Assembly: GCA_046292385.1 (NCBI GenBank)
Contig: JBKBRF010000045.1
Coordinates: 1 to 57,346, forward strand
Reading direction: 5' to 3'
Origin: Armatimonadota bacterium
GTDB taxonomy: Bacteria; Armatimonadota; SYMT01
DNA length: 57,346 bases
Positions 8,792-30,058 of the stretch are shown in pieces (position 1 is the stretch's first letter; each line of letters starts with the position of its first letter). The notes under the pieces were generated by a model. That model was not told where the DNA came from, made no database searches, and saw nothing but the letters and a program-made list of their open reading frames with translations. Both the position numbers and the translations under genes were made by a program.

Positions 8792-8794
8792 GCT

Positions 8795-9160: not shown

Positions 9161-9180
9161 ATCCGAACTGCGAGGTGAAG

Positions 9181-10374: not shown

Positions 10375-10384
10375 GGAGATCCCC

Positions 10385-11125: not shown

Positions 11126-11179
11126 CTGGACGAGGCGGCCGCGGCGGCGCCGGCGGCACCCGTAGACTCCGCACCAGCT

Positions 11180-11518: not shown

Positions 11519-11527
11519 GGCCCTGAC

Positions 11528-11971: not shown

Positions 11972-14631
11972 ATCGGCTCCTCGAAGCAGCATTGAGCTAC
12001 GCGCAGCGCGGCTGGCTGGTCTTCCCGCTCCACACTCCGGAGGGTGACGGCTGCTCGTGCGAGAATCCCGAGTGCGATCGGATCGGCAAGCACCCGCGGA
12101 CGAAGCACGGGTTGAAGGACGCGACCACCGATCCGCGGATCCTCAAGCGCTGGTGGGAGCTGCAGTGGCCGGACGCCAACATCGGCATCGTCACCGGCAG
12201 CGGCTCCGGCCTGGTGGTGATCGACGTCGATCCAGACCATGGCGGCAGCGACAGCTGGTACGAGGCGCAGCGCGAGCACCAGGGCTGCAGTGTCGACACC
12301 GTCGAGGCGATCACCGGCAGCGGCGGCACCCACGTCCTGTTCCGCCACCCCGGCGGGATCCGGATCGGCAACCGCCAGGAGTGGCTGCCGGGTGTCGACG
12401 TCCGCGGGGACGGCGGCTACATCGTCGCTGCGCCGTCGCTCCACGCCAGCGGAGCCTGCTACGAATGGGAGGCGTCCTGCCATCCGGACGACGTCTCGCC
12501 GGCGCCGCTCCCGGAGTGGCTGCTGGACCAGCTCGTCAACCGCCGGAAGACGGCCGAGGCGACCGGCCCCAAGGGCGTGGACCAGGGCCAGCTCGCGCTG
12601 GTCGACCCGGTCCTGGCCGGGTGCGCGTGGCTGCGTCACTGCGTCGACGATGCCGCCAGCCTGAAGGAGGCGCCCTGGCACGCGCTGGCGACGATCTGCG
12701 CCCAGCTCCAGGACGGACAGCGGCTCTACCACGAGTGGAGCAAGCCCTTCCCCCGTTACGACCAGGCAGAGACCCAGGAGAAGCTGGACCACGCGCGCCG
12801 CACCTCCCGCCCGCGCACCTGCTCCGCCATCCGCATGGAGTTGGACGGCGAGCCCTACTGCTCCGGCTGCCCCCACTGGGGCAAGATCCGCTCGCCGATC
12901 GCGCTCGGCCGGGGATTCATCGCGGAAGCGGATCTCCTGGCGCCGCCGCCGACGCAGCGGATCCAGGTCGGACTGCTGGAGGATGTCCCGCTGCCGGATA
13001 ACGTCGAGCGGCGCCGCCCCACCCCGCGCGCCAGTACCGCGGTGCCGCCGCCGGCCACCCGGAACGGTCACCCGAATGGGCACGCCAACGGCAACGGCCG
13101 CACCCAGGCGCACGCTCCCGCGGCCGCGCCGGCACCGGATGAAGCGGAGTGGGGCGCGCCGCCGCTCACCGAGGAGGCCCTGGGGCACGCGGCCGCCGAC
13201 GCCAACGAAGGTGAGGGCCGCGGCGGTCCGTCGGAGCTGTCTCTCGCTCGCGGCTGGGCCGGCGAGGTGCGGGAGCAGTGGGCCTTCTTCGAGGGCGCCC
13301 AGTGGTATCGCTACGCTCGCGGCTGCTGGCGCTACTCCAGCGCGGAGCGGGCAGAGGCGGAGCTGCAGCACTGGCTGGAGCGGGCCCGGCTCACCGGCAC
13401 GAAGGTCTCCGTCACGGCGCGGAAGGTGAGCAACATCCTCCGCCTGGCGCGGAACCACCTGGGCCCGCACGAACTGACGGAGCTCAACTCCCGGCCGACC
13501 TGGATCCCGCTCGCGAACGGCGTGTACGACACGGAGACGAACGAGATCCGGCCGCACTCGCCGAAGCACTGGCTCACCCACCAGCTCCCGTTCGCCTACG
13601 ATCCCGGCGCCGACTGCCCCCGCTGGAAGGAGTTCCTCCTGCAGGTGATGCTGCGCTCCGACGGCACTCCCTGCCAGGAGTGGATCGACGCGCTCCAGGA
13701 ATGGTTCGGGTACTGCCTCGTCCCGGACAACCGCTACCAGATGTCGATGGTCTGGGTCGGCGAGGGCCAGAACGGCAAAGGGGTCGCGACCCGTGTGCTT
13801 CAGGAGCTGGTCGGCTCGGCGCAGTGCTGCTCGGTGCCGATCGAGCAGCTCCACGATCCCTACTACCGCGCGAGTCTCCACGGCAAGCTGGTCGGCTTCG
13901 TGAACGAGCCGGACCCGCGGGCGATGCTCAAGAACGGCTCGTACTTCAAGGCGCTCACCGGCAAGGACGCGATCGACGGCCGCCGCCCCACCGAGAAGGT
14001 GTTCTTCTTCGTGCCGACGGTCCGCCTGGTCATCTCCTGTAACGCGCTCCTCACCACCCGGGATCTGAGCCACGGCTACTTCCGGCGGCTGGTGATCATC
14101 GAGTGGCGCTACCAGGTGCCGGACGGCCAGCAGGATACGAGCCTCGACGATCGCCTGAGCGAGGAGCTGCCCGGGATCTTCAACTGGGCCCTCGAAGGCC
14201 TGCGCCGGTTCCGCGAGCGAGGCTCCCGCCTGGACCGGCTGCCGGAGAGCGAAGCGCTCCTGAAGGACTACAAGCTCTCCGAGGACAGCTTCGCCCAGTT
14301 CCTGGATGACGAGTGCGAGCGGGGCCCGGAGCTCAAGTGGGTCACGGGCGACCTCTACGCCGCGTACGTCGCCTACTGCCAGGAGAACGGGTTCCCTCGC
14401 GCTCAGAGCAGCACCTCCGTCGGCACCCGCCTCACGAAGATGGGCTGCGAGAAGGGCAACACCGTGATCGATGGGGTGACGGTCCGGTACCGGCGCGGGA
14501 TCGCGCTGCGCGAGAACAGCCCCTACGCTAACGTGCGCGCGGGTCAGGGCCGGCGCCGCCGGTCCAAGCGGGAGTTCGATCCCGGCGAGCCGCCGCCCGA
14601 GCTACCGGCCCAGCGGGAGATCGTCTACTGA
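11968..14631 (+). CDS. Bifunctional primase-polymerase fused to a D5/P4-type SF3 helicase
   Basis: GWLVFPL, GKHP, ANIGIVTG, VIDVD, GGTH, DVRGDGGYIVAAPS; Walker A GEGQNGKG; RRLVIIEW. Confidence 0.92.
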   Translation: MNRLLEAALSYAQRGWLVFPLHTPEGDGCSCENPECDRIGKHPRTKHGLKDATTDPRILKRWWELQWPDANIGIVTGSGSGLVVIDVDPDHGGSDSWYEAQREHQGCSVDTVEAITGSGGTHVLFRHPGGIRIGNRQEWLPGVDVRGDGGYIVAAPSLHASGACYEWEASCHPDDVSPAPLPEWLLDQLVNRRKTAEATGPKGVDQGQLALVDPVLAGCAWLRHCVDDAASLKEAPWHALATICAQLQDGQRLYHEWSKPFPRYDQAETQEKLDHARRTSRPRTCSAIRMELDGEPYCSGCPHWGKIRSPIALGRGFIAEADLLAPPPTQRIQVGLLEDVPLPDNVERRRPTPRASTAVPPPATRNGHPNGHANGNGRTQAHAPAAAPAPDEAEWGAPPLTEEALGHAAADANEGEGRGGPSELSLARGWAGEVREQWAFFEGAQWYRYARGCWRYSSAERAEAELQHWLERARLTGTKVSVTARKVSNILRLARNHLGPHELTELNSRPTWIPLANGVYDTETNEIRPHSPKHWLTHQLPFAYDPGADCPRWKEFLLQVMLRSDGTPCQEWIDALQEWFGYCLVPDNRYQMSMVWVGEGQNGKGVATRVLQELVGSAQCCSVPIEQLHDPYYRASLHGKLVGFVNEPDPRAMLKNGSYFKALTGKDAIDGRRPTEKVFFFVPTVRLVISCNALLTTRDLSHGYFRRLVIIEWRYQVPDGQQDTSLDDRLSEELPGIFNWALEGLRRFRERGSRLDRLPESEALLKDYKLSEDSFAQFLDDECERGPELKWVTGDLYAAYVAYCQENGFPRAQSSTSVGTRLTKMGCEKGNTVIDGVTVRYRRGIALRENSPYANVRAGQGRRRRSKREFDPGEPPPELPAQREIVY

Positions 14632-14650
14632 TGCCGCGGTGTACATACAG

Positions 14651-14880
14651 GTCCCTTGCGGGTTCCATACGGGTTAGGACGGGCAATCCGTGCCTGGTAC
14701 GTGCGGGTTGTGCGGGTTTGCAGGTTCTCCTTAGAGGGCTGCGGTACTCAACCCTCTCTCCTCGTACCTTCCCATGTCATGGAACTAGCAAGTACTTGCA
14801 AACCCGCAAGTACGGAGTTCAAAGCGTGGCTGGATTGCGGTCGATTAGTACATACGGGTTGATCTAAACCCGCAAGGGAC
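14651..14880. repeat. Iteron-rich candidate replication origin
   Basis: T(G/A)CGGGTT octamers in direct and inverted orientation; 14-bp perfect inverted repeat 14651-14664/14867-14880; palindrome GCAAGTACTTGC at 14788-14799. Confidence 0.65.
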
Positions 14881-14959
14881 TCGCACGTACATCCGCATGG
14901 GACGGGTGGACTCGTCGCGCTTGTCTTTGTTGTTCGAAGTTCTTGGAGATCCAGAGCGA

Positions 14960-16642
14960 ATGCTTCAACTGCGACCCTACCAGGAGGAGGCCGTGCAGAG
15001 CGTGCTCGCCGCACGCGCCGAGGGCCTCCAGCGCGTGCTCTACACGAAGCCAACCGGGACGGGCAAGACCGTGACGTTCGTGGCGCTGCGCAACCAGTGG
15101 CCGGAGGGAGGCAAGACCCTCGTCATTGCGCACCGCGAGGAGCTGCTCGAGCAGGCAGCGGTCTCATTCCATCGCGCGGACCCGAGCGTACACGTCGAGA
15201 TCGAGCAGGGCAGTCGTAAGGCCAGTCAGTGGGCCGACGTGGTAGTCGCCAGCGTCCAGACCCTGGGCCGGAAGAACAGCACCCGGCTGGCGTGGCTGCG
15301 GGAGAAGCTCCGCCTGGTGATCGTCGACGAGGCGCACCACGCGCCGGCCCGGATCTACAAGGACACGTTCCACCGCTTCGGCTGCTACGACCTGGGCGGG
15401 CCCATGCTGGTCGGGTGCACGGCGACGCCGAAGCGGATGGACAAGCTCGGCCTGCACACCGTCTTCCAGCGGCAGGTGTTCTCCTACCCGATCCGGCAGG
15501 CGATCGAGGACGGCTACCTCTGCGACATCCGCGGCTTCCGCGTGAAGAGCACGGTCGACCTCTCCGAGGTGAAGACGGTCGCCGGCGACTACAACCAGAC
15601 CCAGCTCGCGGCCGCCGTCAACGTCGAGGCCCGCACGAGCGCCGCGATCCGGCACTGGCAGGAGGTGGCGAGCGACCGCCCCACCATCGTCTTCTGCGTC
15701 GACGTGGCCCACGCGAAGGACGTAGCCGAAGCCTGGCGGAAGGTCGGCGTCCCGGCGGAGCACGTGGACGGCACGATGTCGAGTGACCAGCGCCGGGCGG
15801 TGATCCAGCGCTTCAAGGCCGGCCGGATCCAGGTGCTCACCAACGTGGAGGTGCTCACCGAGGGGTTCGACCACCCACCCGTGAGCTGCGTGGTGATGCT
15901 GCGGCCGACGCAGAGCTGGGCTCTGTACTGCCAGTGCGTCGGCCGGGGCACGCGGATCCACCCGAGCAAGCAGGACCTGCTCGTCCTCGACGTCGTGGAC
16001 GCGTGCCAGCAGCACAGCCTGGCCACCGTCCCCGCCATCCTCGACCTGCCGCCGCAGCTCGACCTCCAGGGCCAGAGCCTCCGCGCGGCCGCCCGGAAGA
16101 TCGAGGAACTCGGGGAGAAGGCGGCGGTGCTCCAGTCGTACCAGCCGGAGCTGTTCTCCGACATCGACACAATGCTGGAACGCGTCGATCTGTTCGCCGC
16201 GGTGGAGCCGCCGCAGGAGGTGACGGACGCCAACTGCCGCCTGGCCTGGCTCAAGCTCGGCGACAGCTCCTACGTGATCGGCTGCGGCCGCGGGCGCGAG
16301 GCCCGGCTCACCCGGGATCTCCTCGGCGAGTGGACGCTGGAGATGAGCGACGCCGGTGGCGTGGTGAGCCGCGGCCGCCTCGATCCGGAGACCGATCCGC
16401 AGGACGCCCTCGCCCGCTCAGACGGCGCCGTACTGAAGCGCTGGTCCGACGCGATCGCCGTCGCCGGCCGCGGGATGAAGTGGCGCCAGGAGCCGCCCAG
16501 CGAGAAGCAGGTACGCTGCCTCCGCCGAATGGGCTACGCCGCCGAGGTGATCGCGACGATGACCAAGGGCCAGGCCTCTGGCCTCATCACTCAGCACTTC
16601 GAGCGCCAGGGCAACGGCGCCGGCGCGCGGAGGTCCGCATGA
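14960..16642 (+). CDS. SF2 DEAH-box helicase
   Basis: LRPYQ, PTGTGKT, DEAHH, TATP, LTEGFD, QCVGRGTR. Confidence 0.92.
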   Translation: MLQLRPYQEEAVQSVLAARAEGLQRVLYTKPTGTGKTVTFVALRNQWPEGGKTLVIAHREELLEQAAVSFHRADPSVHVEIEQGSRKASQWADVVVASVQTLGRKNSTRLAWLREKLRLVIVDEAHHAPARIYKDTFHRFGCYDLGGPMLVGCTATPKRMDKLGLHTVFQRQVFSYPIRQAIEDGYLCDIRGFRVKSTVDLSEVKTVAGDYNQTQLAAAVNVEARTSAAIRHWQEVASDRPTIVFCVDVAHAKDVAEAWRKVGVPAEHVDGTMSSDQRRAVIQRFKAGRIQVLTNVEVLTEGFDHPPVSCVVMLRPTQSWALYCQCVGRGTRIHPSKQDLLVLDVVDACQQHSLATVPAILDLPPQLDLQGQSLRAAARKIEELGEKAAVLQSYQPELFSDIDTMLERVDLFAAVEPPQEVTDANCRLAWLKLGDSSYVIGCGRGREARLTRDLLGEWTLEMSDAGGVVSRGRLDPETDPQDALARSDGAVLKRWSDAIAVAGRGMKWRQEPPSEKQVRCLRRMGYAAEVIATMTKGQASGLITQHFERQGNGAGARRSA

Positions 16643-17289
16643 GCGCCGTCTTCGACCCCGCAGGTCCGCGCTTGGAGCTGGAAGTCCCACTCCCGCCGCC
16701 GGACAACCAGTGCCACCGCAGCGGGCGCTTCAGCCGCTACGCCACGGCCGCCTACCGCGACTGGCTCGACGTGGCCGGCGAGCCGCTGCGCGAGGCGCTC
16801 GGCGGTTGGCAGCCCGACACCGAGCGCTGGTGGAGCGTGTCGCTGGTCCTGCGGCTCGGCTCCCAGGGCGACGGCCCGAACTACCTCAAGCCGGCCCTGG
16901 ACCTGCTCACCGGCTCCCGCGCCGCCCGCAGCGGGGACCGGGACCAGCACGGCAACAAGATCGACGCCGGCCGGATCATCAAGCCCGGCGCGCTCTGGAA
17001 TGACGACCGCCGGGTCGCGCGGGTGGAGCTGGTCGTCACGCAGGTCCGGCAGCCGGAGCCGCGCCTGCTGCTGATCGCGACCGCGGAGGAGCGGGGGCCG
17101 CTCGACTTTCGGGCGTGGCAGGAGGGGCAGGCTCGCCGGGAACGCGAGCGGGAGCGCCAGGAGGCCCGAGAGGAGCGCCAGCGGACGAAGGAAGCCGAAA
17201 AGGCCCGGAAGGCGGCTGAGCGGGCGGAGAAGCGGGCTCAGCGACCGGCCGCGAGCCGGCGGAGCCGGACGGCGGGAGGGCAGGCCTGA
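16639..17289 (+). CDS. RusA-like Holliday junction resolvase
   Basis: PLPPPDN, DGPNYLKPALDLL, WNDDRRV; GGAGG RBS. Confidence 0.65.
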   Translation: MSAVFDPAGPRLELEVPLPPPDNQCHRSGRFSRYATAAYRDWLDVAGEPLREALGGWQPDTERWWSVSLVLRLGSQGDGPNYLKPALDLLTGSRAARSGDRDQHGNKIDAGRIIKPGALWNDDRRVARVELVVTQVRQPEPRLLLIATAEERGPLDFRAWQEGQARRERERERQEAREERQRTKEAEKARKAAERAEKRAQRPAASRRSRTAGGQA

Positions 17290-18728
17290 TGCGTGTCGCA
17301 GCCCCTACGATCGCCCTGCTGCTCACCCGCCGGGGCCTCAGCGCCTGGCCGCACTTCCGGGCCGCGCGGACGGAGGCGCAGCTCGCCCACGTGCGCATGA
17401 TCACCGGCCTGCACCCGGACGAGCTCTCCGCACTGAAGCAGCTCCGCGAGAACCTGGACGGCCTCTCCGATCCGATCGTCCCGCGCGGACCGCACCAGGA
17501 CCCGGACGGCTGGTTCCAGCGCAGCACTGGCGCCGGAGTCAACCCCTGGCGGGTGAAGCCGGGGATCCTCGATCGACTGCTCGCCGGCCTCACGGTCCAG
17601 GAGCGCGCCTTCGGGTTGCTCCTCACCGTGCTGATGCCGGCGGAGAGCCATTTCCGCAACTCGCTGGAGAGCACCCTCAAGCGACGGCTGGAGCCGGACT
17701 GGGAGCGCCAGCGCGCGGAAGAGGATGCACGGCTGGAGAGGCAGCGCGCCGAGCGCGAGCGCCTCGCCGAGGCCGAGAGGAATGCCGTGGAAGCAACCGC
17801 GGCAGAGACAGCCCGCAGGCGGCGTGACGCCGCGGGTGGAGACGAACGACACATGGACGAACGGACGAACACGGCGACCCTGAACGGGCAGCCACCGGGC
17901 AGTAAGGATCGTGTGGCCCGGGCCCTCGAACAGCGAGGCCTCGACCTCGCGGAGCCGATCCCCGACCAGGCGAAGCGGGAGATCGCCCGCGTGCTCGGCC
18001 TCAGCACCAGCCTGGTGAGCGCGCACATCGCCAAGCTGCGGGACGAGCGTGGGATCGTGGTCGGCACCACCCGGCCGAAGAGCGAGGCCCGCACCCCGGC
18101 GGCCAACCCGGAGCCGGCGATCACGCCGGAGAGCACCGGGGACGCGGCGGCCGCGGAAGTGGCGCCGGAAGCTGCTGCCGCGGCTGAGCCGGAGCCGGGC
18201 GAATTCCCGGAGCCCCAGAGCTGGCAGCATTCCGCGGAGGTCAAGCGGCTCCAGGACGAGCTCGCCGCGCTCCGGGCCTCGTATGACGAGCGTGGCCAGG
18301 CACTGATCCAGGCCTGCGATTCAAAGGGCCAGATCGAGACCGACCTCGAGGCCACGCGTGAGCAGCTCCAGCAGCTCCAGGTGAAGTATCAGGACCTCCT
18401 GCTGAGCCGTGAGGAACTGCAGCGGACCATCCTGCGGCTCGGGCAGAACCTCCAGAAGGCGCTGCGGGGCGAGCCGGAAGAAGAGGGGGCAGGCTTCCCG
18501 GATGAGCGGATCATTCTCTGCCTGAAGCGGTATCAGCAGGGCCGGCCGGCTCCGCAACCGCCGGCTCGTCGGGTCTCGATCCTCGATGAGATGCTCCCGG
18601 CTCCGTCACCGGACTGGCAGCCGCAGCAAGGATGGGAGGCGCTCCGGCTTGCGCTGGACCACGATCCGGCTGTGCTCCTGCTGGCGGCCGACCTGGGCGG
18701 TCTGGCGCGGCGAGGGCCCCGACTATGA
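17289..18728 (+). CDS. Hypothetical HTH/coiled-coil protein
   Basis: KREIARVLGLSTSLVSAHIAKL HTH; long coiled coil; possible internal start at 17853. Confidence 0.6.
   Translation: MRVAAPTIALLLTRRGLSAWPHFRAARTEAQLAHVRMITGLHPDELSALKQLRENLDGLSDPIVPRGPHQDPDGWFQRSTGAGVNPWRVKPGILDRLLAGLTVQERAFGLLLTVLMPAESHFRNSLESTLKRRLEPDWERQRAEEDARLERQRAERERLAEAERNAVEATAAETARRRRDAAGGDERHMDERTNTATLNGQPPGSKDRVARALEQRGLDLAEPIPDQAKREIARVLGLSTSLVSAHIAKLRDERGIVVGTTRPKSEARTPAANPEPAITPESTGDAAAAEVAPEAAAAAEPEPGEFPEPQSWQHSAEVKRLQDELAALRASYDERGQALIQACDSKGQIETDLEATREQLQQLQVKYQDLLLSREELQRTILRLGQNLQKALRGEPEEEGAGFPDERIILCLKRYQQGRPAPQPPARRVSILDEMLPAPSPDWQPQQGWEALRLALDHDPAVLLLAADLGGLARRGPRL
18091..18152 (+). repeat. 62-bp element, copy 1 (inverted copy at 46575-46636)
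   Basis: 59/62 identity by manual alignment. Confidence 0.9.
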
Positions 18729-20065
18729 GCGGAGTCCTCACGGCCGAACCGTCGGGTGATTATGCCGCGCGGCATAACCCGGCGCTCCCGGAGCTGCTGG
18801 AGCTCGACCCGGCGGAGATCCGGTTCTGTCCGATCAACCCCCGGATGCTCGATGACGCGGACGAGTCGCTGCGGCTCCTCGCGGAGAACATTCGGGAACA
18901 CGGGCTCAAGCAGCCAATCACCGTGCGAGAGACCGGCGACGCCACCCAGCCGTACGAGGTGGTCGCCGGAGAACGCCGACTGCGGGCCTGCCGCTTGGCG
19001 GGCCTGCCCCGGATCCGGGCCTTCAACGAGGGCGCGATCAGCCTGGAGAGAGCGTTCGAGACCACGATCGCGGAGAACGAATTCCGCGAGCAGCTCTCGC
19101 CGATCGAGCAGGCTCGCGCGATCGAGCAGGCGAGAGGCGCCTTTAACTGGCCGCAGGAGAAGATCGGCCGGCTCTTCGGCGGCAAGAGCCAGAGCTGGAT
19201 CTCCCGCACCTGTGGGCTCCTGCGCCTGCCCGCTGCGGTCCAGGAGCTGCTCAAGACCGGTCAGCTCAGCCGCACCAACGCGGAGGAGTTGCTCGCGTTG
19301 GCCCGGTGGCAGGGCGAGCTGATCCGGATCGCGGAAGACGCCGCCCGGGAGAAGTGGACTCAGGAGCACACCGCGGAGATCGTCGCGAAGCGGAAGCGGA
19401 CGCTCGAAGAGCGCGAGCAGCCGTCGCTCCAGGTCATGGACGAGCCGGAGCAGTCGGCCGCTCCCAGGCAGGCAGCCGCTCCCGTCCCGGCGGCAACCAC
19501 TCAGGACGAGCTGCCGAAGGCGGATGAGCTGGTCGGCTCCATGCGGGACCTGCCCACCAAGCAGGATCTCCGATCGGAGCCGGCTGCCGCTCCCAGCGAG
19601 CCGGCGGCGGTCACCTCCGTCGAGATCCAGCCGGGTGACCGGGTGACCTGGACCGAAGGCGGCCAGACCTGGGAAGGCATCGTCGAGGGCCGCGAGGGCG
19701 ACGGCTGGGCGGTCCAGGCGGAGCGGCCGCAGCCGGGTCCCACCGGAGTGCGCGGGGACGAGCCGACGCTCCGGAAGCTGCCGCCGAAACCGGCTGCCCC
19801 CGCGGCTCCGCCGGCGACATCGTCGAGCACCGCGGCTCCCGCGTCCAGCCCGACGGCGCCGCCCCCCACCGGTACCACGCCGGCCGCCCAGAAGTGGGTG
19901 ACCTGCCTGGTCACCGAGACGGACCACACCTGGCTGTATAGCAACCTGCTCACCGTGAGCGATGCCATCCACCAGGCGCGCTGCCTGCACGAGGCCGCCG
20001 CTCAGCGCGGCCTGCGCGTGGGCGAATTCCTGACCCAGCTCAAAGGAGACGAGACCGATGCGTGA
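18725..20065 (+). CDS. parB: ParB/Spo0J-family protein (PRTRC-associated)
   Basis: NPR, GLKQPITVR, YEVVAGERRLRAC, ENEFREQLSPIEQA and HTH QEKIGRLFGGKSQSWISR; long Pro/Ala C-terminal extension. Confidence 0.9.
   Translation: MSGVLTAEPSGDYAARHNPALPELLELDPAEIRFCPINPRMLDDADESLRLLAENIREHGLKQPITVRETGDATQPYEVVAGERRLRACRLAGLPRIRAFNEGAISLERAFETTIAENEFREQLSPIEQARAIEQARGAFNWPQEKIGRLFGGKSQSWISRTCGLLRLPAAVQELLKTGQLSRTNAEELLALARWQGELIRIAEDAAREKWTQEHTAEIVAKRKRTLEEREQPSLQVMDEPEQSAAPRQAAAPVPAATTQDELPKADELVGSMRDLPTKQDLRSEPAAAPSEPAAVTSVEIQPGDRVTWTEGGQTWEGIVEGREGDGWAVQAERPQPGPTGVRGDEPTLRKLPPKPAAPAAPPATSSSTAAPASSPTAPPPTGTTPAAQKWVTCLVTETDHTWLYSNLLTVSDAIHQARCLHEAAAQRGLRVGEFLTQLKGDETDA
18760..18777. promoter_or_regulatory. 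Palindrome copy B, perfect TTATGCCGCGCGGCATAA (candidate parS/operator)
   Basis: Perfect 18-bp palindrome within the 5' end of parB. Confidence 0.7.
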
Positions 20066-20246
20066 ATTCCGCTTTAACGGGGCCATCCTCGCGGACCCCA
20101 ATCCCAACATGAGCGCCGAGGAAGTCCGGCAGATGTACGCCCAGGCGGGTTACCCCGCGCTCACCAACGGTAGTGTCGTCGGACCGGAGACGATCAATGG
20201 CCGCCAGGTCTACACGTTCAAAGCAGCCGTCGGCACCAAGGGATAA
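20058..20246 (+). CDS. PRTRC system protein C (ubiquitin-like)
   Basis: 62 aa; REFRFNGAILADPNP...EEVRQMYA..YPALTN...FKAAVGTKG ending in Gly. Confidence 0.9.
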   Translation: MREFRFNGAILADPNPNMSAEEVRQMYAQAGYPALTNGSVVGPETINGRQVYTFKAAVGTKG

Positions 20247-20408
20247 CGAGCCATGCCCGCAACCCTTCAGCGCGGCGATCGCCCGAATACGGAGCGGCGA
20301 GGAGACGGAGAACGGCGCCCTGGCGACGGTGTTCCTCACCGATCCGGACGCGCCGGAGATCGCCAAGCAGGTGGCAAAGTGGGTGAGGCCCGGAAGGGGG
20401 CGGCCGGT

Positions 20409-21470
20409 GTGGCCGCCCTCCGCTTCCCTGCCGCTCCTGCCCTGATCCTGCCGCGGCTCTCTCCGGCGATCCCCACGCTCATCGACGTCAACCGGTGGGC
20501 GCGGGACAGCGCGGAGATCGCTGCGGGGCTGCTCGCCGAAGGCATCCTCCAGGAGTCCGACTGGACCGGCAAGCTGGGAGAGTCCCTCGTGAAGGGGCTC
20601 TCCCGCTGGCTGGCCGAGCAGGGCGCGGACCTTCGGCACCTTCCGCTGGCACTCAGCTTCACCGACACGGTCGAGCACTGGTCGCTGGAGGCGAGTGCCT
20701 ACCACCAGGCGATTCCGGACGCAGATCCGGAGCGCGACGTGGGCGGCCTCGCGCTCCGCCTGCCTACGTACACCATCGGATCGGTGCACGTGGGCGAGCG
20801 CGTTCAGGCGCTGGAAGGAATACACAGCGGCGCCGGCTACAGCGTCCTCGGGCTGGTGGAGACCGCCCTCTGGCGCACGGTGACCGCCGCAAGCCCTTCC
20901 TGGGCGCTGGATCAACTCGAGCGTCACGAAGAGTGGATGGACTATCAGGAGCCCGATAGCGAGGCCGATCCGGACGAGCAGCGACTGACCCGCGAGGTGT
21001 TCCACGAGGAAGTCCCGCTGCAGGCCTGCTCGATGAAATGGGACTCCAAGCCGGTGAAGTCCGCGCTGCGGAAGCGGCCGCCCGGAGTCCTGGGCGACAT
21101 CCTCCGCGCCGCGGAAGACCTCGCCGCTCTTCTCACCCAGGTTCCGGAAGGACACCGCAGCGAGTTCGAGCGGGGCGCCTGCGACTGGTGCGATTCGATC
21201 CCGCCGCTGCTCCTGCGGTGGAGCCAGGACGACATCATCCCGCAGCTCTTCGACGACTACGCGGAGATCGCCCAGCAGGGGAACTGGACGGACGTGAACT
21301 GGATCTACGCGTTCCAGGTGAGCCGGCCCGAGACGATCCGTGAGGCCGCGCGGGCTCTCAAGCAGGTGATCGCGATCCTCGTGCGGGTCGACCGCCTGCT
21401 TGAACTCCTGGACACACCGACGCTCGAGAAGACGTTTGCCGAGGAAGAGCGAGTGAGGGTGCGTGTATGA
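20409..21470 (+). CDS. PRTRC system protein F
   Basis: LILPRLSPAIP N-terminus, ALEGIHSGAG segment and position after protein C; GTG 20409 with GGAAGGGGG RBS preferred over ATG 20253. Confidence 0.75.
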   Translation: MAALRFPAAPALILPRLSPAIPTLIDVNRWARDSAEIAAGLLAEGILQESDWTGKLGESLVKGLSRWLAEQGADLRHLPLALSFTDTVEHWSLEASAYHQAIPDADPERDVGGLALRLPTYTIGSVHVGERVQALEGIHSGAGYSVLGLVETALWRTVTAASPSWALDQLERHEEWMDYQEPDSEADPDEQRLTREVFHEEVPLQACSMKWDSKPVKSALRKRPPGVLGDILRAAEDLAALLTQVPEGHRSEFERGACDWCDSIPPLLLRWSQDDIIPQLFDDYAEIAQQGNWTDVNWIYAFQVSRPETIREAARALKQVIAILVRVDRLLELLDTPTLEKTFAEEERVRVRV

Positions 21471-22207
21471 ACGTGATCGACGACCTCTCCGCGCAGGAGA
21501 CGATGCAGCTCCAGCGCGCGATCCTGATCTACCAGTCCAGCTCATCCGGCGCGCTAGCGACCGTGCACGAGGTGAGCAAAGGCCGCCGCGGAAGCGAGAT
21601 CGGTCCCGGCCGGCTGCTTACCCGGGACGTCCTCGAGTCGCTGGCCCGGGATCTCAACCAGGCGCCCAAGACCCGCGAGGTGCTGTCGGAGCGGATCCTG
21701 TGCGCCGACGGCAGCCGCATGGCCTGGTGGCTCCCTTCGGGCCGACGGCCGATCTTCTTCCGCACCCGCGACCCGAAGTGGGACCGGGCGATGTCCGGGA
21801 AAGTGGCGCTGCATCCGCCGCTCCTCTTCATCGCCTCCCCGGGCCAGCTCGCGATCCACGCGCTGGCGGAGAACCGGCGGCCAAACGCAGATACTCCGCT
21901 CTTCGTGGCGCCCTACTACAACCTCTACGACCACGGGGGGATGTGCCTGGGGAACGTGCGACTGCCCGGGGCGCTCTCGGTGGACGATCTGCAGGCCTGG
22001 GAAGACGGGTTCTTCCAGACCAACTTCACGCACAGCAACTACCCCCAGGGCCAGCTCACCCGCCACCCGCAGGGCCACAACGGACTGTGGCGGGAGCTGA
22101 CGTCTCCGCGCCGCTGGGCCACCTTCATCCGCGGTCGGAGTCCGCGCTTCCCCGCGCAGTGGCTCACCCCGCTCAAGCAGACCATTGTGCAGAGGATCAA
22201 CGCATGA
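21467..22207 (+). CDS. PRTRC system protein B (E2-like)
   Basis: AILIY...LATVH.V, WWLP, HPPLLF, LFVAPYYN, GGMCLGN (candidate catalytic Cys), FFQTNFTH. Confidence 0.88.
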   Translation: MNVIDDLSAQETMQLQRAILIYQSSSSGALATVHEVSKGRRGSEIGPGRLLTRDVLESLARDLNQAPKTREVLSERILCADGSRMAWWLPSGRRPIFFRTRDPKWDRAMSGKVALHPPLLFIASPGQLAIHALAENRRPNADTPLFVAPYYNLYDHGGMCLGNVRLPGALSVDDLQAWEDGFFQTNFTHSNYPQGQLTRHPQGHNGLWRELTSPRRWATFIRGRSPRFPAQWLTPLKQTIVQRINA

Positions 22208-23025
22208 GCGCCGAGCACACCATCATCCCCGAGCTGCTGCAGCGCATGGTCCGGGTCCACCTGGTGGGCGCCGGCGGGAACGGGGCGCAGATGCTCACCG
22301 GCCTCGGCCGGCTGAATCACGCACTGACGACCCTGGGGCACCCGGGCGGGCTGTTCGTCACCGTCTACGACCACGACACGGTGAGCGCATCTAACGTCGG
22401 ACGCCAGCTCTTCAGCGAGGGCGACCTCGGCCGCGCTAAGGCGACCGTGTTGGTTCACCGGCTGAACGCCTTTTACGGGCTCCACTGGAAGGCGATAACC
22501 GGTCGTTACCCGGAGTCGGCCGATCAGACGCATCCCGACCTGGTGATCACCTGCGTGGACACTGCGGCGGCTCGGCGGGAGATCTATCGCCACCTGAAAG
22601 CACGGAACTACCATCCCGGTTACTGGCTGGACCTGGGCAATCGCCAGACGGACGGGCAGGTGGTCCTGGGTGAGCAGCCGCTCAACGGTACGGGAAAGGC
22701 GCGCCACCCGCGAAAGCCGTCGGCGCCGCCGGCGCTCCCCACGGTGGTCGACCTCTTCCCCGACATCCTGGACGAGCGGATAGCGGAAGACGACCGGCCG
22801 AGCTGCTCGTTGGCGCAGGCCCTCGAGAGCCAGGATCTCTTCATCAACGACCACGTCTCCCGGTGGGCGCTGCAGCTGCTCTGGGACCTGTTCCGGAAGG
22901 GCCGGCTGGCTCACCACGGCTACTTCGTGAACCTCGCGACCGGCCGCGTGAATCCCCTCCCGGTGCCCGTCCCGAAACCGTCGGCGGAGGTGACCCCCGT
23001 GAAGAAGGCGAGGGCCCGGCAATGA
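22204..23025 (+). CDS. PRTRC system ThiF-family protein (E1-like)
   Basis: LVGAGGNG, DHDTVSASNVGRQLF, CVD, YWLDLGN, PSCSLAQALESQDLFIN. Confidence 0.92.
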   Translation: MSAEHTIIPELLQRMVRVHLVGAGGNGAQMLTGLGRLNHALTTLGHPGGLFVTVYDHDTVSASNVGRQLFSEGDLGRAKATVLVHRLNAFYGLHWKAITGRYPESADQTHPDLVITCVDTAAARREIYRHLKARNYHPGYWLDLGNRQTDGQVVLGEQPLNGTGKARHPRKPSAPPALPTVVDLFPDILDERIAEDDRPSCSLAQALESQDLFINDHVSRWALQLLWDLFRKGRLAHHGYFVNLATGRVNPLPVPVPKPSAEVTPVKKARARQ

Positions 23026-23288
23026 GCGAGTTCAACTTCTTGGACCTCGACCTGTGGCAGGAGCTCTGCGAGTTCCTGGCGAGCCGCCCGCGGAAGTGTG
23101 CCTACGCCAGGTTCATTCCGAATCACCTGAGCCCGCTCGTATCGGCCGACGCCAAGTCGGCACGAACCCAGGTCGGCCTGATCTTCTGGTCCACGGGCTG
23201 GGGCTGGCGACTCCGAAAGAACTGGCAGGAGCGGCTGGCCACGCTGCGGCGCGACGGGATCCCGGCGGAAGGGAGCAACCCATGTTAG
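23022..23288 (+). CDS. Hypothetical protein
   Basis: ATGA-coupled to the ThiF gene. Confidence 0.55.
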   Translation: MSEFNFLDLDLWQELCEFLASRPRKCAYARFIPNHLSPLVSADAKSARTQVGLIFWSTGWGWRLRKNWQERLATLRRDGIPAEGSNPC

Positions 23289-23923
23289 ACGTGCGCTTCC
23301 AACCCCTCACGCAGTGGCCTGGCGCGCCGCGGAGCCAGCGCAAGCCGTCGCGGTTCCGGGTGATGTTCCCGGCGATCCTGGACGACTTGGAGCGGGAGCT
23401 CGAGTACCTCGGTGCGCGGGACATCCTCATCCAGATCGCCGTCGAGCCGAAGGACATTCGCAACGACGGCTGGCCTCGCTCTGGGGCACGGCCGTCGCAT
23501 CCCGGCGTGATCCTCAACTTCGCCGCCGGCCGGGTCCCCTACCAGTTCGCGTGCGACACGTACGACGACTGGCAGGACAACCTCCGCGCCATCACCCTCA
23601 CGCTCCAGGCGCTGCGGGCGGTGGACCGCTACGGCGCCACTCAGCACCGGGAGCAGTACCGCGGGTTCGCGGCGCTGCCTCCGGGCGAGGGCGCTCCTGA
23701 ATCGCAGCCCGAGGCGATGACGCTGGACCAGGCGGCGAAGCTGCTGGCGGAGCTGGGTGGATTCACCGCGGGGGCGCTCCTGGCCGACGCCGAGGTGGTC
23801 CGGATCGCCTGGAAGCGGGCGGCGGACCGGCTCCATCCGGACCGCGGAGAGGACGGCGCGAAGTTCCTGCGCGCTCAGAAGGCCCGCGATCTACTGCTGG
23901 CACACCACGGGAGGACCAAGTGA
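23282..23923 (+). CDS. Phage protein with C-terminal J-domain
   Basis: PGVILNF...FACDTY..WQDNLRAI.LTL.ALR.VDRYG; C-terminal RLHPDRG. Confidence 0.75.
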   Translation: MLDVRFQPLTQWPGAPRSQRKPSRFRVMFPAILDDLERELEYLGARDILIQIAVEPKDIRNDGWPRSGARPSHPGVILNFAAGRVPYQFACDTYDDWQDNLRAITLTLQALRAVDRYGATQHREQYRGFAALPPGEGAPESQPEAMTLDQAAKLLAELGGFTAGALLADAEVVRIAWKRAADRLHPDRGEDGAKFLRAQKARDLLLAHHGRTK

Positions 23924-24915
23924 GCGAGACGAGCACAGTCGCCGGTCAGATGCACGAGCTGAAGATCTGGCCGGAGTACTTCGAAGCGATCCGCACCGGC
24001 AAGAAGACGTTCGAAGTGCGGAAGGATGACCGGGGCTTTCAGGTCGGGGACCTGCTCTTGCTTCGTGAGTGGGATCCGGAGACGAAGACCTACTCCGGCC
24101 GCGCTCTGTTCCGGGACGTGAGCTACGTCCTGCGCCTGGAGCCGGGTGACTGCGTGGTGATGTCGCTGACGGTGGATCCGGATGCAGGCGGCCCCAGGCC
24201 AGCGACGGAGCCTAAGCAGATCTCACCCGTCCATGCGCTACGCCTGTTGGACTTCGCCAGAGAGCTTCCACACGTGGATCTCTGGTGGGACCCGGAAGGC
24301 TTCTCCCTGCAGGACGAGAAGCGCCAGGTGCATGCCTACTTCGCGTACGACCTCTCCGGCGAGGGCGACTTCGAGCGGTGGAACCGCCTGGCGAAGCTGC
24401 GGGCACACCTCTGCCAGCAAGCTCCGGCGGCCCTGATCGCGCTGGCAGAGGAGAACGAGCGCCTCCGGAAGGCGCTGGAGACGTTCGCTGCGCCGGATAT
24501 GTGGGAGCAGGTCGAGGGAGAAGTGTTCGGCCCTGACTGCCCCGACGGTCACAACGACCCGCTGATCTGGCTCGGCGCCGAGGACCCGATTCAGATCGCC
24601 CGCGCTGCCCTCGCTCCGCCGGAGGTGCCCGCTCAGACTCTGCACGTCTGGGAGGCTGGTGACTACGGGGAGAAGATCGTCGCGGCGAGCGCGGAGCATG
24701 CGGCCGAGATCTACACGGAACTCACCGGCGAGGCCGCCCCCTCGGAAGAGGACCAGTGGGAGCAGCTTCCGGACGACCACGTCATCACCATCACCTATCC
24801 CGACGAGCCGAGGGGCGAGGACGGTGAACCGGTGAGAGTCAGCCACACTGCGGCCGAGTGGGCCAACAACGGCGAAGGGCCGCGCTTCCTATGCCTGAGC
24901 AGCGACGTCTGCTGA
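23920..24915 (+). CDS. DUF3850/ASCH-domain fusion protein
   Basis: HELKIWPEYFEAIRTGKKTFEVRKDDRGFQVGD.L.LREW. Confidence 0.8.
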   Translation: MSETSTVAGQMHELKIWPEYFEAIRTGKKTFEVRKDDRGFQVGDLLLLREWDPETKTYSGRALFRDVSYVLRLEPGDCVVMSLTVDPDAGGPRPATEPKQISPVHALRLLDFARELPHVDLWWDPEGFSLQDEKRQVHAYFAYDLSGEGDFERWNRLAKLRAHLCQQAPAALIALAEENERLRKALETFAAPDMWEQVEGEVFGPDCPDGHNDPLIWLGAEDPIQIARAALAPPEVPAQTLHVWEAGDYGEKIVAASAEHAAEIYTELTGEAAPSEEDQWEQLPDDHVITITYPDEPRGEDGEPVRVSHTAAEWANNGEGPRFLCLSSDVC

Positions 24916-25135
24916 GCGCCTTCCCCCAGCGGCGCTGGTGCTACGTGTCGTACGTCTCCCTCCGCGGACGGCTCGACACCCCGGCACTCTGGTACCACGA
25001 GCACGCGTGCCTGGAAGACGCGCTCACCCACGGCGGGCGCATCCGGAACCTGTGGAGCGGAGAGACGTGGGTGGTGAGGGACTGCTACGGGACGATCCTC
25101 GCCACCCGCACGGCTGGAGACCTGGAGAAGAGACC

Positions 25136-25504
25136 ATGAACGAAGAGCGGAAGGGATTCGAGAGTTGGGCGGTGGTCGAGGTGCTGGGCCACCAGACGTA
25201 TGCCGGGTTCGTGAGCGAGGAGCAGGTGGCAGGTACGAGCATGCTCCGAGTCGACGTACCGGAGTTGTCGCCAGACGCGGGCGAAGCGGTACCCGCGTAC
25301 ACGAAATTCATCGGCGGCGGCTCGATCTACGCGCTGACACCGGTGTCGGAAGAGGTCGCGCGGGCAGCAGCGCGGCGCCTGTGCAACCGGCCGATCAGCG
25401 TCTACATGCCGGAGCTGTATCCGCCGGCCCCACCGAAGGAGCTACCGGAGACCACCGAGGCAGACTACGTCACCGAATACGACGACCCGTTCCAGGACGA
25501 CTAG
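25136..25504 (+). CDS. Conserved phage hypothetical protein
   Basis: WAVVEVLGH...AGFVSE...MLRVDVP...SIYALTPVSEE; GGAG RBS. Confidence 0.7.
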   Translation: MNEERKGFESWAVVEVLGHQTYAGFVSEEQVAGTSMLRVDVPELSPDAGEAVPAYTKFIGGGSIYALTPVSEEVARAAARRLCNRPISVYMPELYPPAPPKELPETTEADYVTEYDDPFQDD

Positions 25505-25506
25505 CG

Positions 25507-25791
25507 ATGAGCCTCCTGCGCACCTTCGAGTGCACCAGCTGCGCTCAGCCTGCCGAGGGAATCCCCTTCGGTGGGCTGAGCGAGCAGCTCTGTCACGAGT
25601 GCTGGTTCGCCCCGGGTGAGGAGCCGCCCAGCGGCATCGTCTACGGTGCCCACGTGACGCACGCCTGTGGTCATCGGATGCACTACACGCTGGAGCACGA
25701 GCCGACTGCCGAGCTGGTCGCGGACCTGGCGGCGCGGCTGTGCCTGGGGTGCCAGGGATCGATCCCGCCGAAGAGCGGGCGGAAAGGATAA
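25507..25791 (+). CDS. Small Cys-rich (Zn-binding) protein
   Basis: CTSC, CHEC, CGH, CLGC. Confidence 0.55.
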   Translation: MSLLRTFECTSCAQPAEGIPFGGLSEQLCHECWFAPGEEPPSGIVYGAHVTHACGHRMHYTLEHEPTAELVADLAARLCLGCQGSIPPKSGRKG

Positions 25792-25793
25792 CG

Positions 25794-26360
25794 ATGGCCA
25801 AACGACTGGATACGATCGTAGTGATCGACGTGGAGTCGACCTGCTGGGACGGCGAGCCGCCCGCGGGCCAGGTGAGCGAGATCATCGAGATCGGCGTCTG
25901 CACGCTCGACGTGCACAGCCTGGAGCGGATCGAGAAGCGGAGCATCCTGGTGAAGCCGCAGCGCTCGGTGGTGAGCGAGTTCTGCACTCAGCTCACCACT
26001 CTTACCGCCGCCGATCTGGAAGGCGGGGTCTACCTGAGCGACGCGGTCCGGATCCTGAAGCGGGAGTACTTCACGCAGGAGCGGCTGTGGGCGAGCTGGG
26101 GAGATTACGATCGGCGGCAGTTCGAGCGCAACTGCGCTGACGCTGGCGTAAGCTACCCGTTCGGAATCAGCCACCTGAACGCCAAGAGCCTCTTCGCGGT
26201 GTGCCGGGGACTGGAGCGGGAGGTGGGCCTAGACGAGGCGTGCCGGCTCTCACGCCTGCCGCTGGAAGGCACCCATCACCGGGGCCACGATGACGCATGG
26301 AACATCGCGGCGGTGCTTGCCCAGGTGCTGCGTCGGGGGCGGATTACGGATCCCTGGTAG
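25794..26360 (+). CDS. DEDDh 3'-5' exonuclease (KapD/ERI-like)
   Basis: IDVESTCW, EIIEIG, SWGDYD, HHRGHDDAWN. Confidence 0.9.
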   Translation: MAKRLDTIVVIDVESTCWDGEPPAGQVSEIIEIGVCTLDVHSLERIEKRSILVKPQRSVVSEFCTQLTTLTAADLEGGVYLSDAVRILKREYFTQERLWASWGDYDRRQFERNCADAGVSYPFGISHLNAKSLFAVCRGLEREVGLDEACRLSRLPLEGTHHRGHDDAWNIAAVLAQVLRRGRITDPW

Positions 26361-26399
26361 GCTGCTCGTCAGCTTTACGGAATCCGTATTGGCGCATTT

Positions 26400-26436
26400 G
26401 CCTGCAAATAGGTCGTGGTGTGTCCTATTTGCAGGC
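26400..26436. terminator. Hairpin between the convergent early and late arms
   Basis: Perfect 13-bp stem GCCTGCAAATAGG/CCTATTTGCAGGC. Confidence 0.7.
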
Positions 26437-26440
26437 GCGT

Positions 26441-27553
26441 TTACATCTCCACCTCGAGGACCACGCGGATGTCGGCGGTGGTCGGAGCCCAGTCCGGGGA
26501 GCAGTCCACTCGCACGGAGAGCTCGTCCCCGGCGGCAAAGGCAAGCACGTCCTTCGCCGCCGTGGTGACCTTCCAGGTGGTGTTGGTCCCGTCGAGCACG
26601 GCCGTCAGCGCGGTAGCAGCGCCGTTCTTGTAGACGGTGACGGTGAGGGTGCCGGCGGTCCGGGCCTCGTTGCTCTTGACGGCCACGGCGGTGACGGATC
26701 CGGCCCGCGGCATCAGCGCCTTCTTCGGGAAGGCAGCACCGGCCCCGAAACGATTCATGTCGTCCACCGAGCTGCCGAGCGGGTTGTCCGCGTACCAGCC
26801 TTCCAGCAGCATCCGGTAGCCGCCGCCCATGTTCAGGTCGCCGGAGCCGGCCGCGCCGCCCGTCAGGTTGGTGAGGCTGGTGATGTCGCCGTTCGCCCCA
26901 CTCGCCGCCGCTCCCAGGGCCGTCCGCGCGGCCGCCGCGGTCGCCGCCCCGGTGCCGCCCTTCGCCACCGAGAGCTGCCCGGAGAACTTCGCGTCGGTGA
27001 CGGCGCCATCGGCGATCTGCGAGCTGCCGACGGAATTCGCCTTCAGCGCGCCGTTGTCTTCGAGCGCGACGGCGAGGCGGGCAGGCAGGGAGCTGAGGGA
27101 GCCGCGCGCGGCCAGGATCTCGTCGGCCAGGGCGGCCAGCGCGATCAGGTCGTTGCGGCCGGCCGGGTTGTCGTCGATGCTGGTGATGGAGGCGGCGCCG
27201 GTGACGATCTCCGCCAGCAGCGCCGCGCGCGCGGGCGTCGTGCCGTCGGTGCGGGCCTCGTACGTGCAGCGCTCGGCATGGTCCGGATCGACCACCGCCC
27301 ACAGCTTGTTGGTGGCGCTAGGACTCAGCGCGACGGAGGCGGCCGCCTTCGCGAAGTAGATTCCGATCAGCAGTTCGGTGGCGTCGACGCTGGCCACCAG
27401 GCCGCCGCCGTCGGTGACGTTGCCGCCGGAGAGGACGCCGGCGCCGAGCCCCTCCAGCAGCGAGTCCTCCAGGTCCTGGAGGTTGGCGTTGTAGTCGCTG
27501 GAGCTGGCGAGCCCGGTGACCGCCTGGCGCAGCGCGTAGTCGGAGGCGCTCAC
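26441..27553 (-). CDS. Tail fibre / receptor-binding protein
   Basis: LSVAKGGTGAATAAAARTALGAA..GANGDITSL and QIADGAVTDAK fibre motifs; last gene of the tail operon. Confidence 0.8.
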   Translation of the reverse strand: MSASDYALRQAVTGLASSSDYNANLQDLEDSLLEGLGAGVLSGGNVTDGGGLVASVDATELLIGIYFAKAAASVALSPSATNKLWAVVDPDHAERCTYEARTDGTTPARAALLAEIVTGAASITSIDDNPAGRNDLIALAALADEILAARGSLSSLPARLAVALEDNGALKANSVGSSQIADGAVTDAKFSGQLSVAKGGTGAATAAAARTALGAAASGANGDITSLTNLTGGAAGSGDLNMGGGYRMLLEGWYADNPLGSSVDDMNRFGAGAAFPKKALMPRAGSVTAVAVKSNEARTAGTLTVTVYKNGAATALTAVLDGTNTTWKVTTAAKDVLAFAAGDELSVRVDCSPDWAPTTADIRVVLEVEM

Positions 27554-27556
27554 TGG

Positions 27557-27970: not shown

Positions 27971-27975
27971 CGTCG

Positions 27976-28665: not shown

Positions 28666-28668
28666 CGG

Positions 28669-30045: not shown

Positions 30046-30058
30046 GCCGCCTCACCCG

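Follow-up and report, generated by a model that had tools for sequence, protein, structure and literature searches.

A PRTRC-type ubiquitin-like cassette without a JAB peptidase gene in the early region of a temperate phage from an Armatimonadota genome

What would a temperate phage do with a ubiquitin-like (Ubl) conjugation cassette, and how would such a cassette work when the peptidase gene that belongs to its definition is missing? The question is raised by a PRTRC-type cassette on contig JBKBRF010000045.1 of an Armatimonadota bacterium (assembly GCA_046292385.1), which was analyzed over its entire length of 57,346 nt (in the following, the window). The cassette comprises five recognized genes on the plus strand between positions 18725 and 23025, which encode a ParB protein, a Ubl protein, protein F, an E2-like protein and a ThiF-type E1, as well as a sixth gene described here as x. 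As far as the sequence allows, the cassette is most likely an early-expressed conjugation module without a peptidase of its own.

PRTRC cassettes have been catalogued since 2006 on many plasmids, conjugative elements and phages, and their presence in phages is already in print. In the excerpted text of Iyer, Burroughs and Aravind (2006), the operon type is defined with JAB and listed as the “fourth operon type” (Table 1, row 6d; PMC1779556). A 2026 paper reports the cassette from a prophage of Burkholderia gladioli and from phage BgVeeders33 and calls its function unstudied in the part available (PMC13366799), and a preprint of the same year names protein B of a Phocaeicola prophage as a mutational hotspot in its excerpt (10.64898/2026.10.01.756045). 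The list of characterized bacterial pathways in the excerpted Bub paper omits the PRTRC family (PMC11601596). A full-text literature search on PRTRC returned, among the papers listed and within the text portions it covers, notes of presence and no experimental study.

Gene content and the missing peptidase

Family assignments were made with the NCBIfam PRTRC models (TIGR03734-03742) and their curated cut-offs, together with Pfam. A first-pass annotation, made from the sequence alone, had placed ParB, Ubl, F, E2-like and E1 genes in this segment, and all five are present on the plus strand, with the motifs it had pointed out (VGTKG, MCLGN, GAGGNG and PSCS) in their translations. Its assignment to PRTRC held for Ubl, F, the E2-like protein and E1, all of which exceed the PRTRC cut-offs, and failed for ParB. 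The Ubl gene (PRTRC C/Prok_Ub; 20058-20246, plus strand) encodes 62 aa ending in VGTKG, with Gly62 as the last residue, and has a Shine-Dalgarno-like GGAG 9 nt upstream. Its product scores 78.1 bits against PRTRC_C (TIGR03738; cut-off 45.95) in an alignment that reaches the last profile position, and belongs to Prok_Ub and not to ThiS/MoaD according to Pfam. Protein F (PRTRC F/alpha-hel2; 20253-21470, plus strand) has an uncertain start at ATG 20253, GTG 20409 or CTG 20442; it obtains 59.6 bits against PRTRC_F (TIGR03742; cut-off 58.4), which is marginal, and 33.7 against 25 for Pfam alpha-hel2. The E2-like protein (PRTRC B/Prok-E2_D; 21467-22207, plus strand) contains a candidate catalytic Cys160 within MCLGN and scores 179.2 bits against PRTRC_B (TIGR03737; cut-off 131.45), with E = 1.3e-34 for Prok-E2_D. 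The E1 of the PRTRC ThiF family (22204-23025, plus strand) has just one adenylation domain, is 273 aa long, contains a candidate catalytic Cys201 (PSC) and reaches 316.4 bits against TIGR03736 (cut-off 144.75) and 51.8 bits against PF00899.

The parB gene (open reading frame (ORF) 18632-20065, likely ATG at 18725, plus strand) encodes ParB_N and HTH_ParB domains and scores 101.6 bits against TIGR00180 (cut-off 58.45). Against PRTRC_parB (TIGR03734; cut-off 278.6) it obtains 53.3 bits, in an alignment confined to the generic N-terminal part of ParB. This protein is thus a generic ParB in the syntenic place. The genes are tightly arranged, with overlaps of 8 nt between parB and the Ubl gene and of 4 nt (ATGA) both between F and E2 and between E2 and E1.

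The candidate catalytic residues of the E1/E2/Ubl pathway proposed in the first-pass annotation are invariant across relatives. In E1, the GxGGxG motif, D56, R67, K79, D119 and C201 are conserved in 141 of 141 unique relatives, and we take the roles of these residues to be those of their counterparts in MoeB/ThiF. In the E2-like protein, C160, N152 and H189 are invariant in 62 sequences. N152 lies 8 residues ahead of the cysteine, and an Asn at this distance before the catalytic Cys is the canonical spacing of E2 enzymes. In a VIA-align search over 48,161 chains, residues 71-236 of a structural model of the protein (predicted local distance difference test (pLDDT) 90.1) aligned to solved E2 enzymes, which are named in the titles of 26 of the top 30 rows, at Z-scores of just 4.9-3.4. 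We interpret the protein as a strongly diverged E2 fold that carries an additional N-terminal domain. This domain (21467-21680, residues 12-72; three strands and a helix) gave structural rows to PC4/Pur-alpha-type single-stranded DNA binders and to COMM domains, which at a Foldseek probability of 0.5-0.7 over 55 columns and Z of about 3 are too weak to interpret.

JAB (PRTRC A), D and E, which the first-pass annotation had not recognized either, were not found in the window or in the genome (7.04 Mb, 98% complete) in model searches. PRTRC_A (TIGR03735) gave no match at E <= 1 in the whole 7.04-Mb genome, and the model matched none of the control genomes either. Prok-JAB (PF14464), which was positive in 11 of 14 control genomes, matched solely on contigs C19, C46 and C69 and not on the window (C-numbers denote contigs of this genome, the window being C45; L-numbers denote fetched loci of relatives). 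PRTRC_D (TIGR03739) had no match in the genome and PRTRC_E (TIGR03741) none over its cut-off, the best (E = 0.37) being located on another contig. In a Pfam scan of the cassette and 53 further ORFs of the window, no JAB or deubiquitinase-like peptidase was found, and the only peptidases were a CHAP endolysin and the prohead protease. On this contig, a hidden JAB gene, allowed for in the first-pass annotation, turned up neither in the profile searches nor in the scan of the window ORFs. Furthermore, the 4-nt overlap of the E2 and E1 genes leaves no space for an A gene, which is placed between B and ThiF in Ralstonia phage Dina.

Gene x and the split Ubl precursor

The cassette had been described as minimal. 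It does lack JAB, D and E, but a sixth gene had been overlooked, and the absence of JAB goes along with a split of the Ubl-x precursor. Gene x (20197-20445, plus strand; 82 aa, unannotated) is read in the +1 frame with respect to Ubl and overlaps the 3′ end of the Ubl gene. Its ATG is located 49 nt before the Ubl stop and is preceded by GGAG 7 nt upstream. Between 20250 and 20400, the GC content at third codon positions is highest in the frame of x (0.87-0.90), with 0.50-0.63 in the frames of Ubl and F. Homologues are found in the equivalent place in a second prophage of the same genome (contig C12) and in L011, L089 and L105, with the ATG at -49 in three of the five loci. The conserved peptide PPSASLPLLP forms the C-terminus of x, the x proteins of these JAB-less loci all terminate in ..PS..LPP(L/I)P, and L100 has an x-like ORF ending in QLPILP.

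Sequence comparison relates x to the tails at the C-terminus of Ubl precursors from JAB-containing cassettes. Among these tails, one class has an N-terminal helix A(L/I)xR(L/I)R.GG and the end APS....VLP, as in x. A hidden Markov model (HMM) of the five x proteins placed 20 real precursor tails above the first of 186 reversed or shuffled decoys, and hhalign aligned x with the tail alignments at 85% probability (E = 6e-6). When a combined HMM of x and tails was searched against 17,904 stop-to-stop ORFs, 102 of 163 loci and the window each gave precisely one matching ORF, which in every case lay between Ubl and F. With both strands of the window searched, the sole match is 20113-20445, the stop-to-stop ORF that contains x. 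These one-per-locus matches identify x as a regular, so far unnamed part of this branch of the family, which is either fused to Ubl or separate, for example as the 61-aa ORF annotated in BgVeeders33. Among the loci scored, a Ubl with a C-terminal tail always co-occurs with JAB, and in JAB-less loci with a recognizable Ubl, the Ubl always ends in Gly.

The start codon of F overlaps the stop codon of x in 97 of 102 loci (ATGA in 73, GTGA in 24). Exceptions are the JAB-less loci L011, L105, C12 and L089 and one JAB-containing locus. In the window, the junction is CTGA (CTG at 20442 at the x stop), which leaves the start of F uncertain. Two other explanations of this region were considered and rejected. 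In the JAB-less loci, the frame of F is open upstream to an ATG just past the Ubl stop, as would be expected for dual coding of F over x, but 53 of 91 JAB-containing loci also have at least 55 open codons there (median 62). A frameshift or readthrough joining Ubl, x and F was likewise dismissed: the junctions have no slippery site in common, and x has its own ATG and GGAG.

Protein F was modeled with AlphaFold2 at a pLDDT of 89.2 and a predicted template modelling score of 0.85. In VIA-align, it reached a best Z of 4.8, and the rows, scattered over type-III-chaperone and YbjN-like folds, were at the level of noise, so that these folds were not adopted. Modeling predicts that x binds F. The interaction prediction score from aligned errors (ipSAE) of the F-x pair was 0.70, 0.69 and 0.71 in three runs, with 0.01 for the best of three controls, and the runs share at least 23% of contacts. 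Of 80 solved complexes, 58 attained the mark applied, as did 2 of 110 mismatched pairs, counts that hold roughly here as own alignments were used. In the model, the conserved helix of x (residues 21-46) lies on the first helices of F (28-68), and the C-terminal peptide of x is unplaced. Sequence searches of the PDB gave no relatives of E2 (E <= 1) or E1 (E <= 0.001) and chance-level rows only for F. Since neither F nor E2 has a PDB relative past the thresholds, the pass of the x-F pair is unlikely to be the memory of a solved complex. Newly recognized here are gene x, its relatedness to the precursor tails as judged from the alignments, and the predicted x-F pair, along with the association of ParB with parS-like sites and the occurrence of two diverged cassettes within a single genome, both described below.

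Relatives, carrier phage and palindromes

A recent decaying insertion without counterparts in relatives, which the first-pass annotation had named as a case against its view, is rejected: a second, diverged and intact copy is present in the same genome, and JAB-less relatives occur in viral contigs. The second copy is located on contig C12 in a prophage with a tyrosine integrase and with terminase and capsid families differing from those of the phage in the window. The order there is RecT ... ParB, Ubl (61 aa), x, F, E2, E1, an 87-aa gene and a phrog_9210 protein, with all frames open. Its cassette proteins show 32-55% identity to those of the window, and the Prok-JAB search of the genome found no JAB in this prophage.

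The distribution in phages, left to a survey in the first-pass annotation, was determined with E1. Relatives were detected in six of 50,697 records of isolated phages and 122 times in IMG/VR. Two of 60 relatives of the host carry E1. The best 80 of 254 genome relatives (one genome per species) and the best 80 of 122 in IMG/VR were scored for locus composition by tblastn with the proteins of the window, C12, Dina and BgVeeders33 as queries. JAB is present in 74 of the 80 genome loci and absent from L011, L033, L069, L084 and L089, with L034 too short to judge, and present in 77 of the 80 viral loci and absent from L100 and L105, with L163 too short. The JAB-less form thus makes up a minority, with five of 79 informative genome loci and two of 79 informative viral loci. 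Its carriers are phage-like DNAs from several lineages, and ParB is often encoded directly upstream of it (window, C12, L089 and L105). The E2 Cys is retained in L011, L069, L084, L089, L100 and L105, and L011 has two small ORFs, one encoding a helix-turn-helix (HTH) protein, between E2 and E1 and no JAB. As regards a single origin of JAB loss, a FastTree tree of 141 E1 sequences, in which the JAB-less rows are all long branches, needed four changes, and one was not excluded.

Comparison with described systems shows which features of the window are peculiar. Like PRTRC (TIGR03734-03742), it has the order C-F-B-E1 with an upstream ParB and with Ubl, F, E2 and E1 passing the models. In contrast, it is without the JAB protein with its JAB-N domain (A), which is part of the 2006 definition, and without D and E, its ParB is not PRTRC_parB, the Ubl-x precursor is split into two overlapping genes, and the carrier is a phage instead of a plasmid or conjugative element. 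A cassette in the early region of a temperate phage is shared with Ralstonia phage Dina (NC_055026), Burkholderia phage BgVeeders33 (OK665841) and IMG/VR contigs of about 40 kb. The E1 proteins of Dina and BgVeeders33 are 49-52% identical to that of the window, and the x module is found between Ubl and F in BgVeeders33 and most IMG/VR contigs and was not detected in Dina. Unlike the window, however, these phages and contigs have the order E-C-F-B-A-ThiF with A as DUF2016+JAB, a 129-aa Ubl precursor and no ParB, and they join F start and x stop by the ATGA or GTGA of the 97 loci mentioned above, where the window has CTGA. Bil (BilABCD) and type II CBASS (Cap2/Cap3) follow the same E1/E2/Ubl logic without an E3, the E2 being thought to pick the target, but they are host defence operons with a JAB peptidase, and Bil has the JAB protein BilC and a tandem-domain E1, BilD (all from the excerpted PMC11601596). 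With NCBIfam and Pfam, no family-level match between these systems and the window was found beyond the shared ThiF fold. Type II Bub (6E.2) is also a bacterial Ubl pathway typically without a JAB peptidase, although it has an E2-E1 fusion with Ser for the catalytic Cys and is de-conjugated by the DUF6527 serine protease BubE, according to the same excerpt. In the window, E1 and E2 are separate genes with invariant cysteines, and Pfam scans of the cassette and the window ORFs gave no match to DUF6527 at E <= 0.001 to 0.01.

The carrier is a temperate siphophage genome of 57,109 bp (117..57225). The window represents one entire contig and is phage DNA by PHROGs and Pfam, with integrases, RecT, primase, helicase, tape measure, capsid, portal and terminase. 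Its left arm harbors a serine integrase (minus strand) and a repressor-like HTH protein, followed on the plus strand by RecT, primase-helicase and helicase and then by ParB, the cassette, an ASCH protein and an exonuclease. After the exonuclease, a late block on the minus strand encodes tape measure, tail tube, capsid, prohead protease, portal and terminase. Host flank occupies bases 1-116, and bases 57226-57346 repeat 117-237 exactly (121 nt), an assembler overlap that gives a circular junction. Bases 1-116 also terminate contigs C54 and C48, giving paths for the integrated form and the empty site. As one assembly graph holds host-phage, phage-phage (circular) and host-host junctions, the phage is mobile or polymorphic in the sampled population. 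The large serine integrase (142..1737, minus strand; phrog_95, E = 6.8e-101; Resolvase and Recombinase domains) adjoins the attachment junction. A second recombinase of the tyrosine type is encoded at 55141-56103 (minus strand), 1.1 kb from the other phage end. The insertion point coincides with the start codon of a gene for a small membrane protein that reads leftwards from base 116.

The earlier view of a cassette in the early operon of an intact prophage agrees with these data, which indicate an early/replication operon and an apparently active temperate phage (PHROGs, Pfam and junctions). The cassette genes are co-directional and overlapping with the helicase gene and the ORFs that follow it. 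A crude scan, which may not suit this organism, detected no promoter-like sites in 8.5-27.8 kb and no terminator-like sites in 10771-24040. Judged from this arrangement, the cassette is probably expressed together with the replication genes.

An 18-bp perfect palindrome, TTATGCCGCGCGGCATAA, is located inside the 5′ end of parB, 36 nt into the gene (18760..18777), and is a candidate parS. Further copies lie at 7762-7779, 30756-30773, 42151-42168 and 56723-56740. At <= 3 mismatches, the window contains five copies with 0.03 expected, spaced by 11-15 kb. Genome-wide at <= 2 mismatches, the palindrome is restricted to the phage in the window, to the C12 prophage as a variant, and to one copy on contig C37. 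The C12 prophage has seven copies of the variant, which is itself palindromic (centre CACGTG), one of them at the equivalent place in its own parB. In L105, another variant occurs inside parB and again 10.8 kb away, and the L089 contig has one 3.6 kb upstream. A C-terminal motif of ParB is common to the ParBs upstream of Ubl in C12 and L105 and to the ORF upstream of Ubl in L011. Sites that are specific to a phage and co-vary with ParB in this manner have the appearance of parS sites. With its ParB_N and HTH domains, the palindromes on its own replicon and their co-variation in a second prophage, ParB would belong to a putative ParB-parS module, which indirectly favors the ParB part of the first-pass view, and it probably loads at five palindromes around the phage genome. 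The copy on C37 (64224) is exact and lies near DNA (about 60.7-64.3 kb) that is 70-71% identical to window positions 27582-28459 (tail-fibre region), so this region may be a third related element.

Proposed role, alternatives and neighboring genes

Taken together, we consider it reasonably probable that the cassette is a working, streamlined PRTRC Ubl conjugation module in the early/replication operon, translationally chained to ParB. As to its chemistry, the x-F complex, the time of expression and the targets, we infer the following. The single-domain E1 would adenylate the C-terminal Gly62 of the 62-aa Ubl, which would be handed from E1 Cys201 to E2 Cys160 and joined by E2 to lysines of target proteins, with F and its bound x serving as an adaptor or as the subunit that selects the substrate. 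Most relatives would make Ubl and x as one precursor, which JAB (PRTRC A) would have to cut after GTKG. In the window, this precursor gene appears split into two overlapping genes. Because of the split, Ubl would be born mature and JAB would be dispensable, and the absence of JAB would leave the cassette without a de-conjugating peptidase of its own.

Several observations weigh against this proposal. The match to PRTRC_F clears its cut-off by just 1.2 bits. The fold match of E2 is weak with Z under 5, and Foldseek found nothing at E <= 0.001 for either the E2 or the F fold. The E-values of x against individual tails are weak (best 3e-4), the hhalign alignment covers just the last 29 columns, and the partner in the F-x model has a pLDDT of about 50, which leaves its fold uncertain. 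The timing of expression, lytic or lysogenic, is deduced from gene order. Many cassettes, namely those of the sphingomonad type and some viral contigs, keep JAB despite a Ubl ending in Gly. Processing is thus one role of JAB and not the sole one, and its loss would remove another function too. In the JAB-less locus L033, a stop lies within the E1 match, so some JAB-less copies may be decaying. Finally, the palindromes could serve another DNA-binding protein instead.

As characterized bacterial E1/E2/Ubl systems such as type II CBASS or Bil belong to the defence systems (excerpted PMC11601596), the cassette might be a prophage-borne anti-phage defence like Bil, expressed in the lysogen to tag proteins of superinfecting phages and to block their assembly for the benefit of host and prophage. 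E1 indeed has a weak match to an anti-phage 6A-MBL Cap2-type NCBIfam model (23.3 bits, cut-off 320), and two different prophages in one genome each retain a copy. Such a defence is unlikely, however, for genes that lie inside an early replication operon and overlap their neighbors without a promoter- or terminator-like break. Their position away from the repressor and the attachment site is not moron-like, the E1 has a single domain compared with the tandem E1 of Bil (same excerpt), and a JAB regulator is missing. We give a similarly small chance to a maintenance or partition module, in which ParB and the cassette would stabilize or regulate an episomal (plasmid-like or pseudolysogenic) phage and Ubl would adjust ParB or the replication proteins of the element. 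The phage-specific parS-like sites of ParB, the circular junction in the assembly, the canonical cassette accompanying ParB on plasmids and conjugative elements (family definition, TIGR03734) and the repeated description of PRTRC as a partitioning cassette in the excerpted PMC13366799 all point in this direction. On the other hand, no ParA-type ATPase adjoins ParB, the phage has two integrases and an integrated form, and in 77 of 80 viral contigs examined, ParB is missing from the vicinity of the cassette. This maintenance role would be compatible with a conjugation module and not exclusive of it.

It is very improbable that no conjugation takes place and that E1 and Ubl form a sulfur carrier pair of the ThiS/MoaD type or perform other adenylation chemistry, for example nucleotide or cofactor modification serving the phage. 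This would fit the ThiF family membership of E1, with its weak matches to ThiF/MoeB models, and the ancestral role of such pairs in sulfur transfer (Iyer et al. 2006, excerpted PMC1779556). It is opposed by the E2-like protein, which is always present with its invariant Cys and the Asn 8 residues ahead, by the Prok_Ub rather than ThiS/MoaD nature of Ubl, and by Pfam scans that found no rhodanese, cysteine desulfurase or biosynthetic partner in the operon. Within the favored conjugation module, a more far-reaching and rather doubtful extension would be that ParB clamps at the five palindromes turn the phage genome, on entry or during replication, into a platform, where x-F-E2 tags DNA-bound host proteins (for example factors of the nucleoid, the replisome or a DNA-targeting defence), with the free and conserved peptide at the C-terminus of x (..PS....LP-COOH) serving as target hook. 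The mark would be irremovable by the cell since the phage brings no isopeptidase. That ParB brings the ligase to the palindromes is a guess.

If this platform existed, it would be the first case of a bacterial virus that uses a ubiquitin-like system for counter-defence or host takeover. The locus is a small self-contained version for reconstitution, with six genes, no protease and a Ubl that needs no processing. Trypsin should cut the Ubl tail ...TKG so that one Gly stays on target lysines, a clear read-out. Gene x and its predicted binding to F offer the first testable role for F and would explain why many relatives make Ubl as a precursor, and with the parS-like sites it can be tested directly if the ligase acts on DNA.

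In JAB-containing cassettes (loci L015-L170), almost all PRTRC E proteins end in an acidic-hydrophobic peptide (..TLDLF, ..GVDLL, ..GVDMY or ..GLDLPI), which we take to resemble the bacterial sliding-clamp-binding motif. Sliding-clamp docking was dismissed for the window, which has no E gene and no cassette protein ending in an xLDLF-like peptide.

Downstream of E1 and coupled to its stop by ATGA, an 88-aa gene (23022-23288, plus strand) is a possible accessory gene. Its product is 92% identical to that of the gene in the equivalent place of the C12 prophage, as compared with the 32-55% of the cassette neighbors, and no further copy was found in the rest of the genome or in the fetched loci. 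Pfam at E <= 1 gave no family for this protein, for x or for the C-terminus of ParB. The N-terminus of the 88-aa protein (..FLDLDLW..) faintly resembles the C-terminal end of PRTRC E proteins. Adjoining the repressor-like HTH gene, a HipA-like kinase (HipA_2, PF20613) is encoded beside a DUF3037 protein (2973-4690, minus strand), and this pair may be a prophage-borne toxin-antitoxin or defence pair. The phrog_9210 protein that follows the 88-aa gene (23282-23923, plus strand) shows 70% identity to its C12 counterpart in the equivalent place, and its relatives are located about 2 kb downstream of E1 in L021 and L127. Its C-terminus contains an HPD tripeptide with a faint match to DnaJ (E = 0.1).

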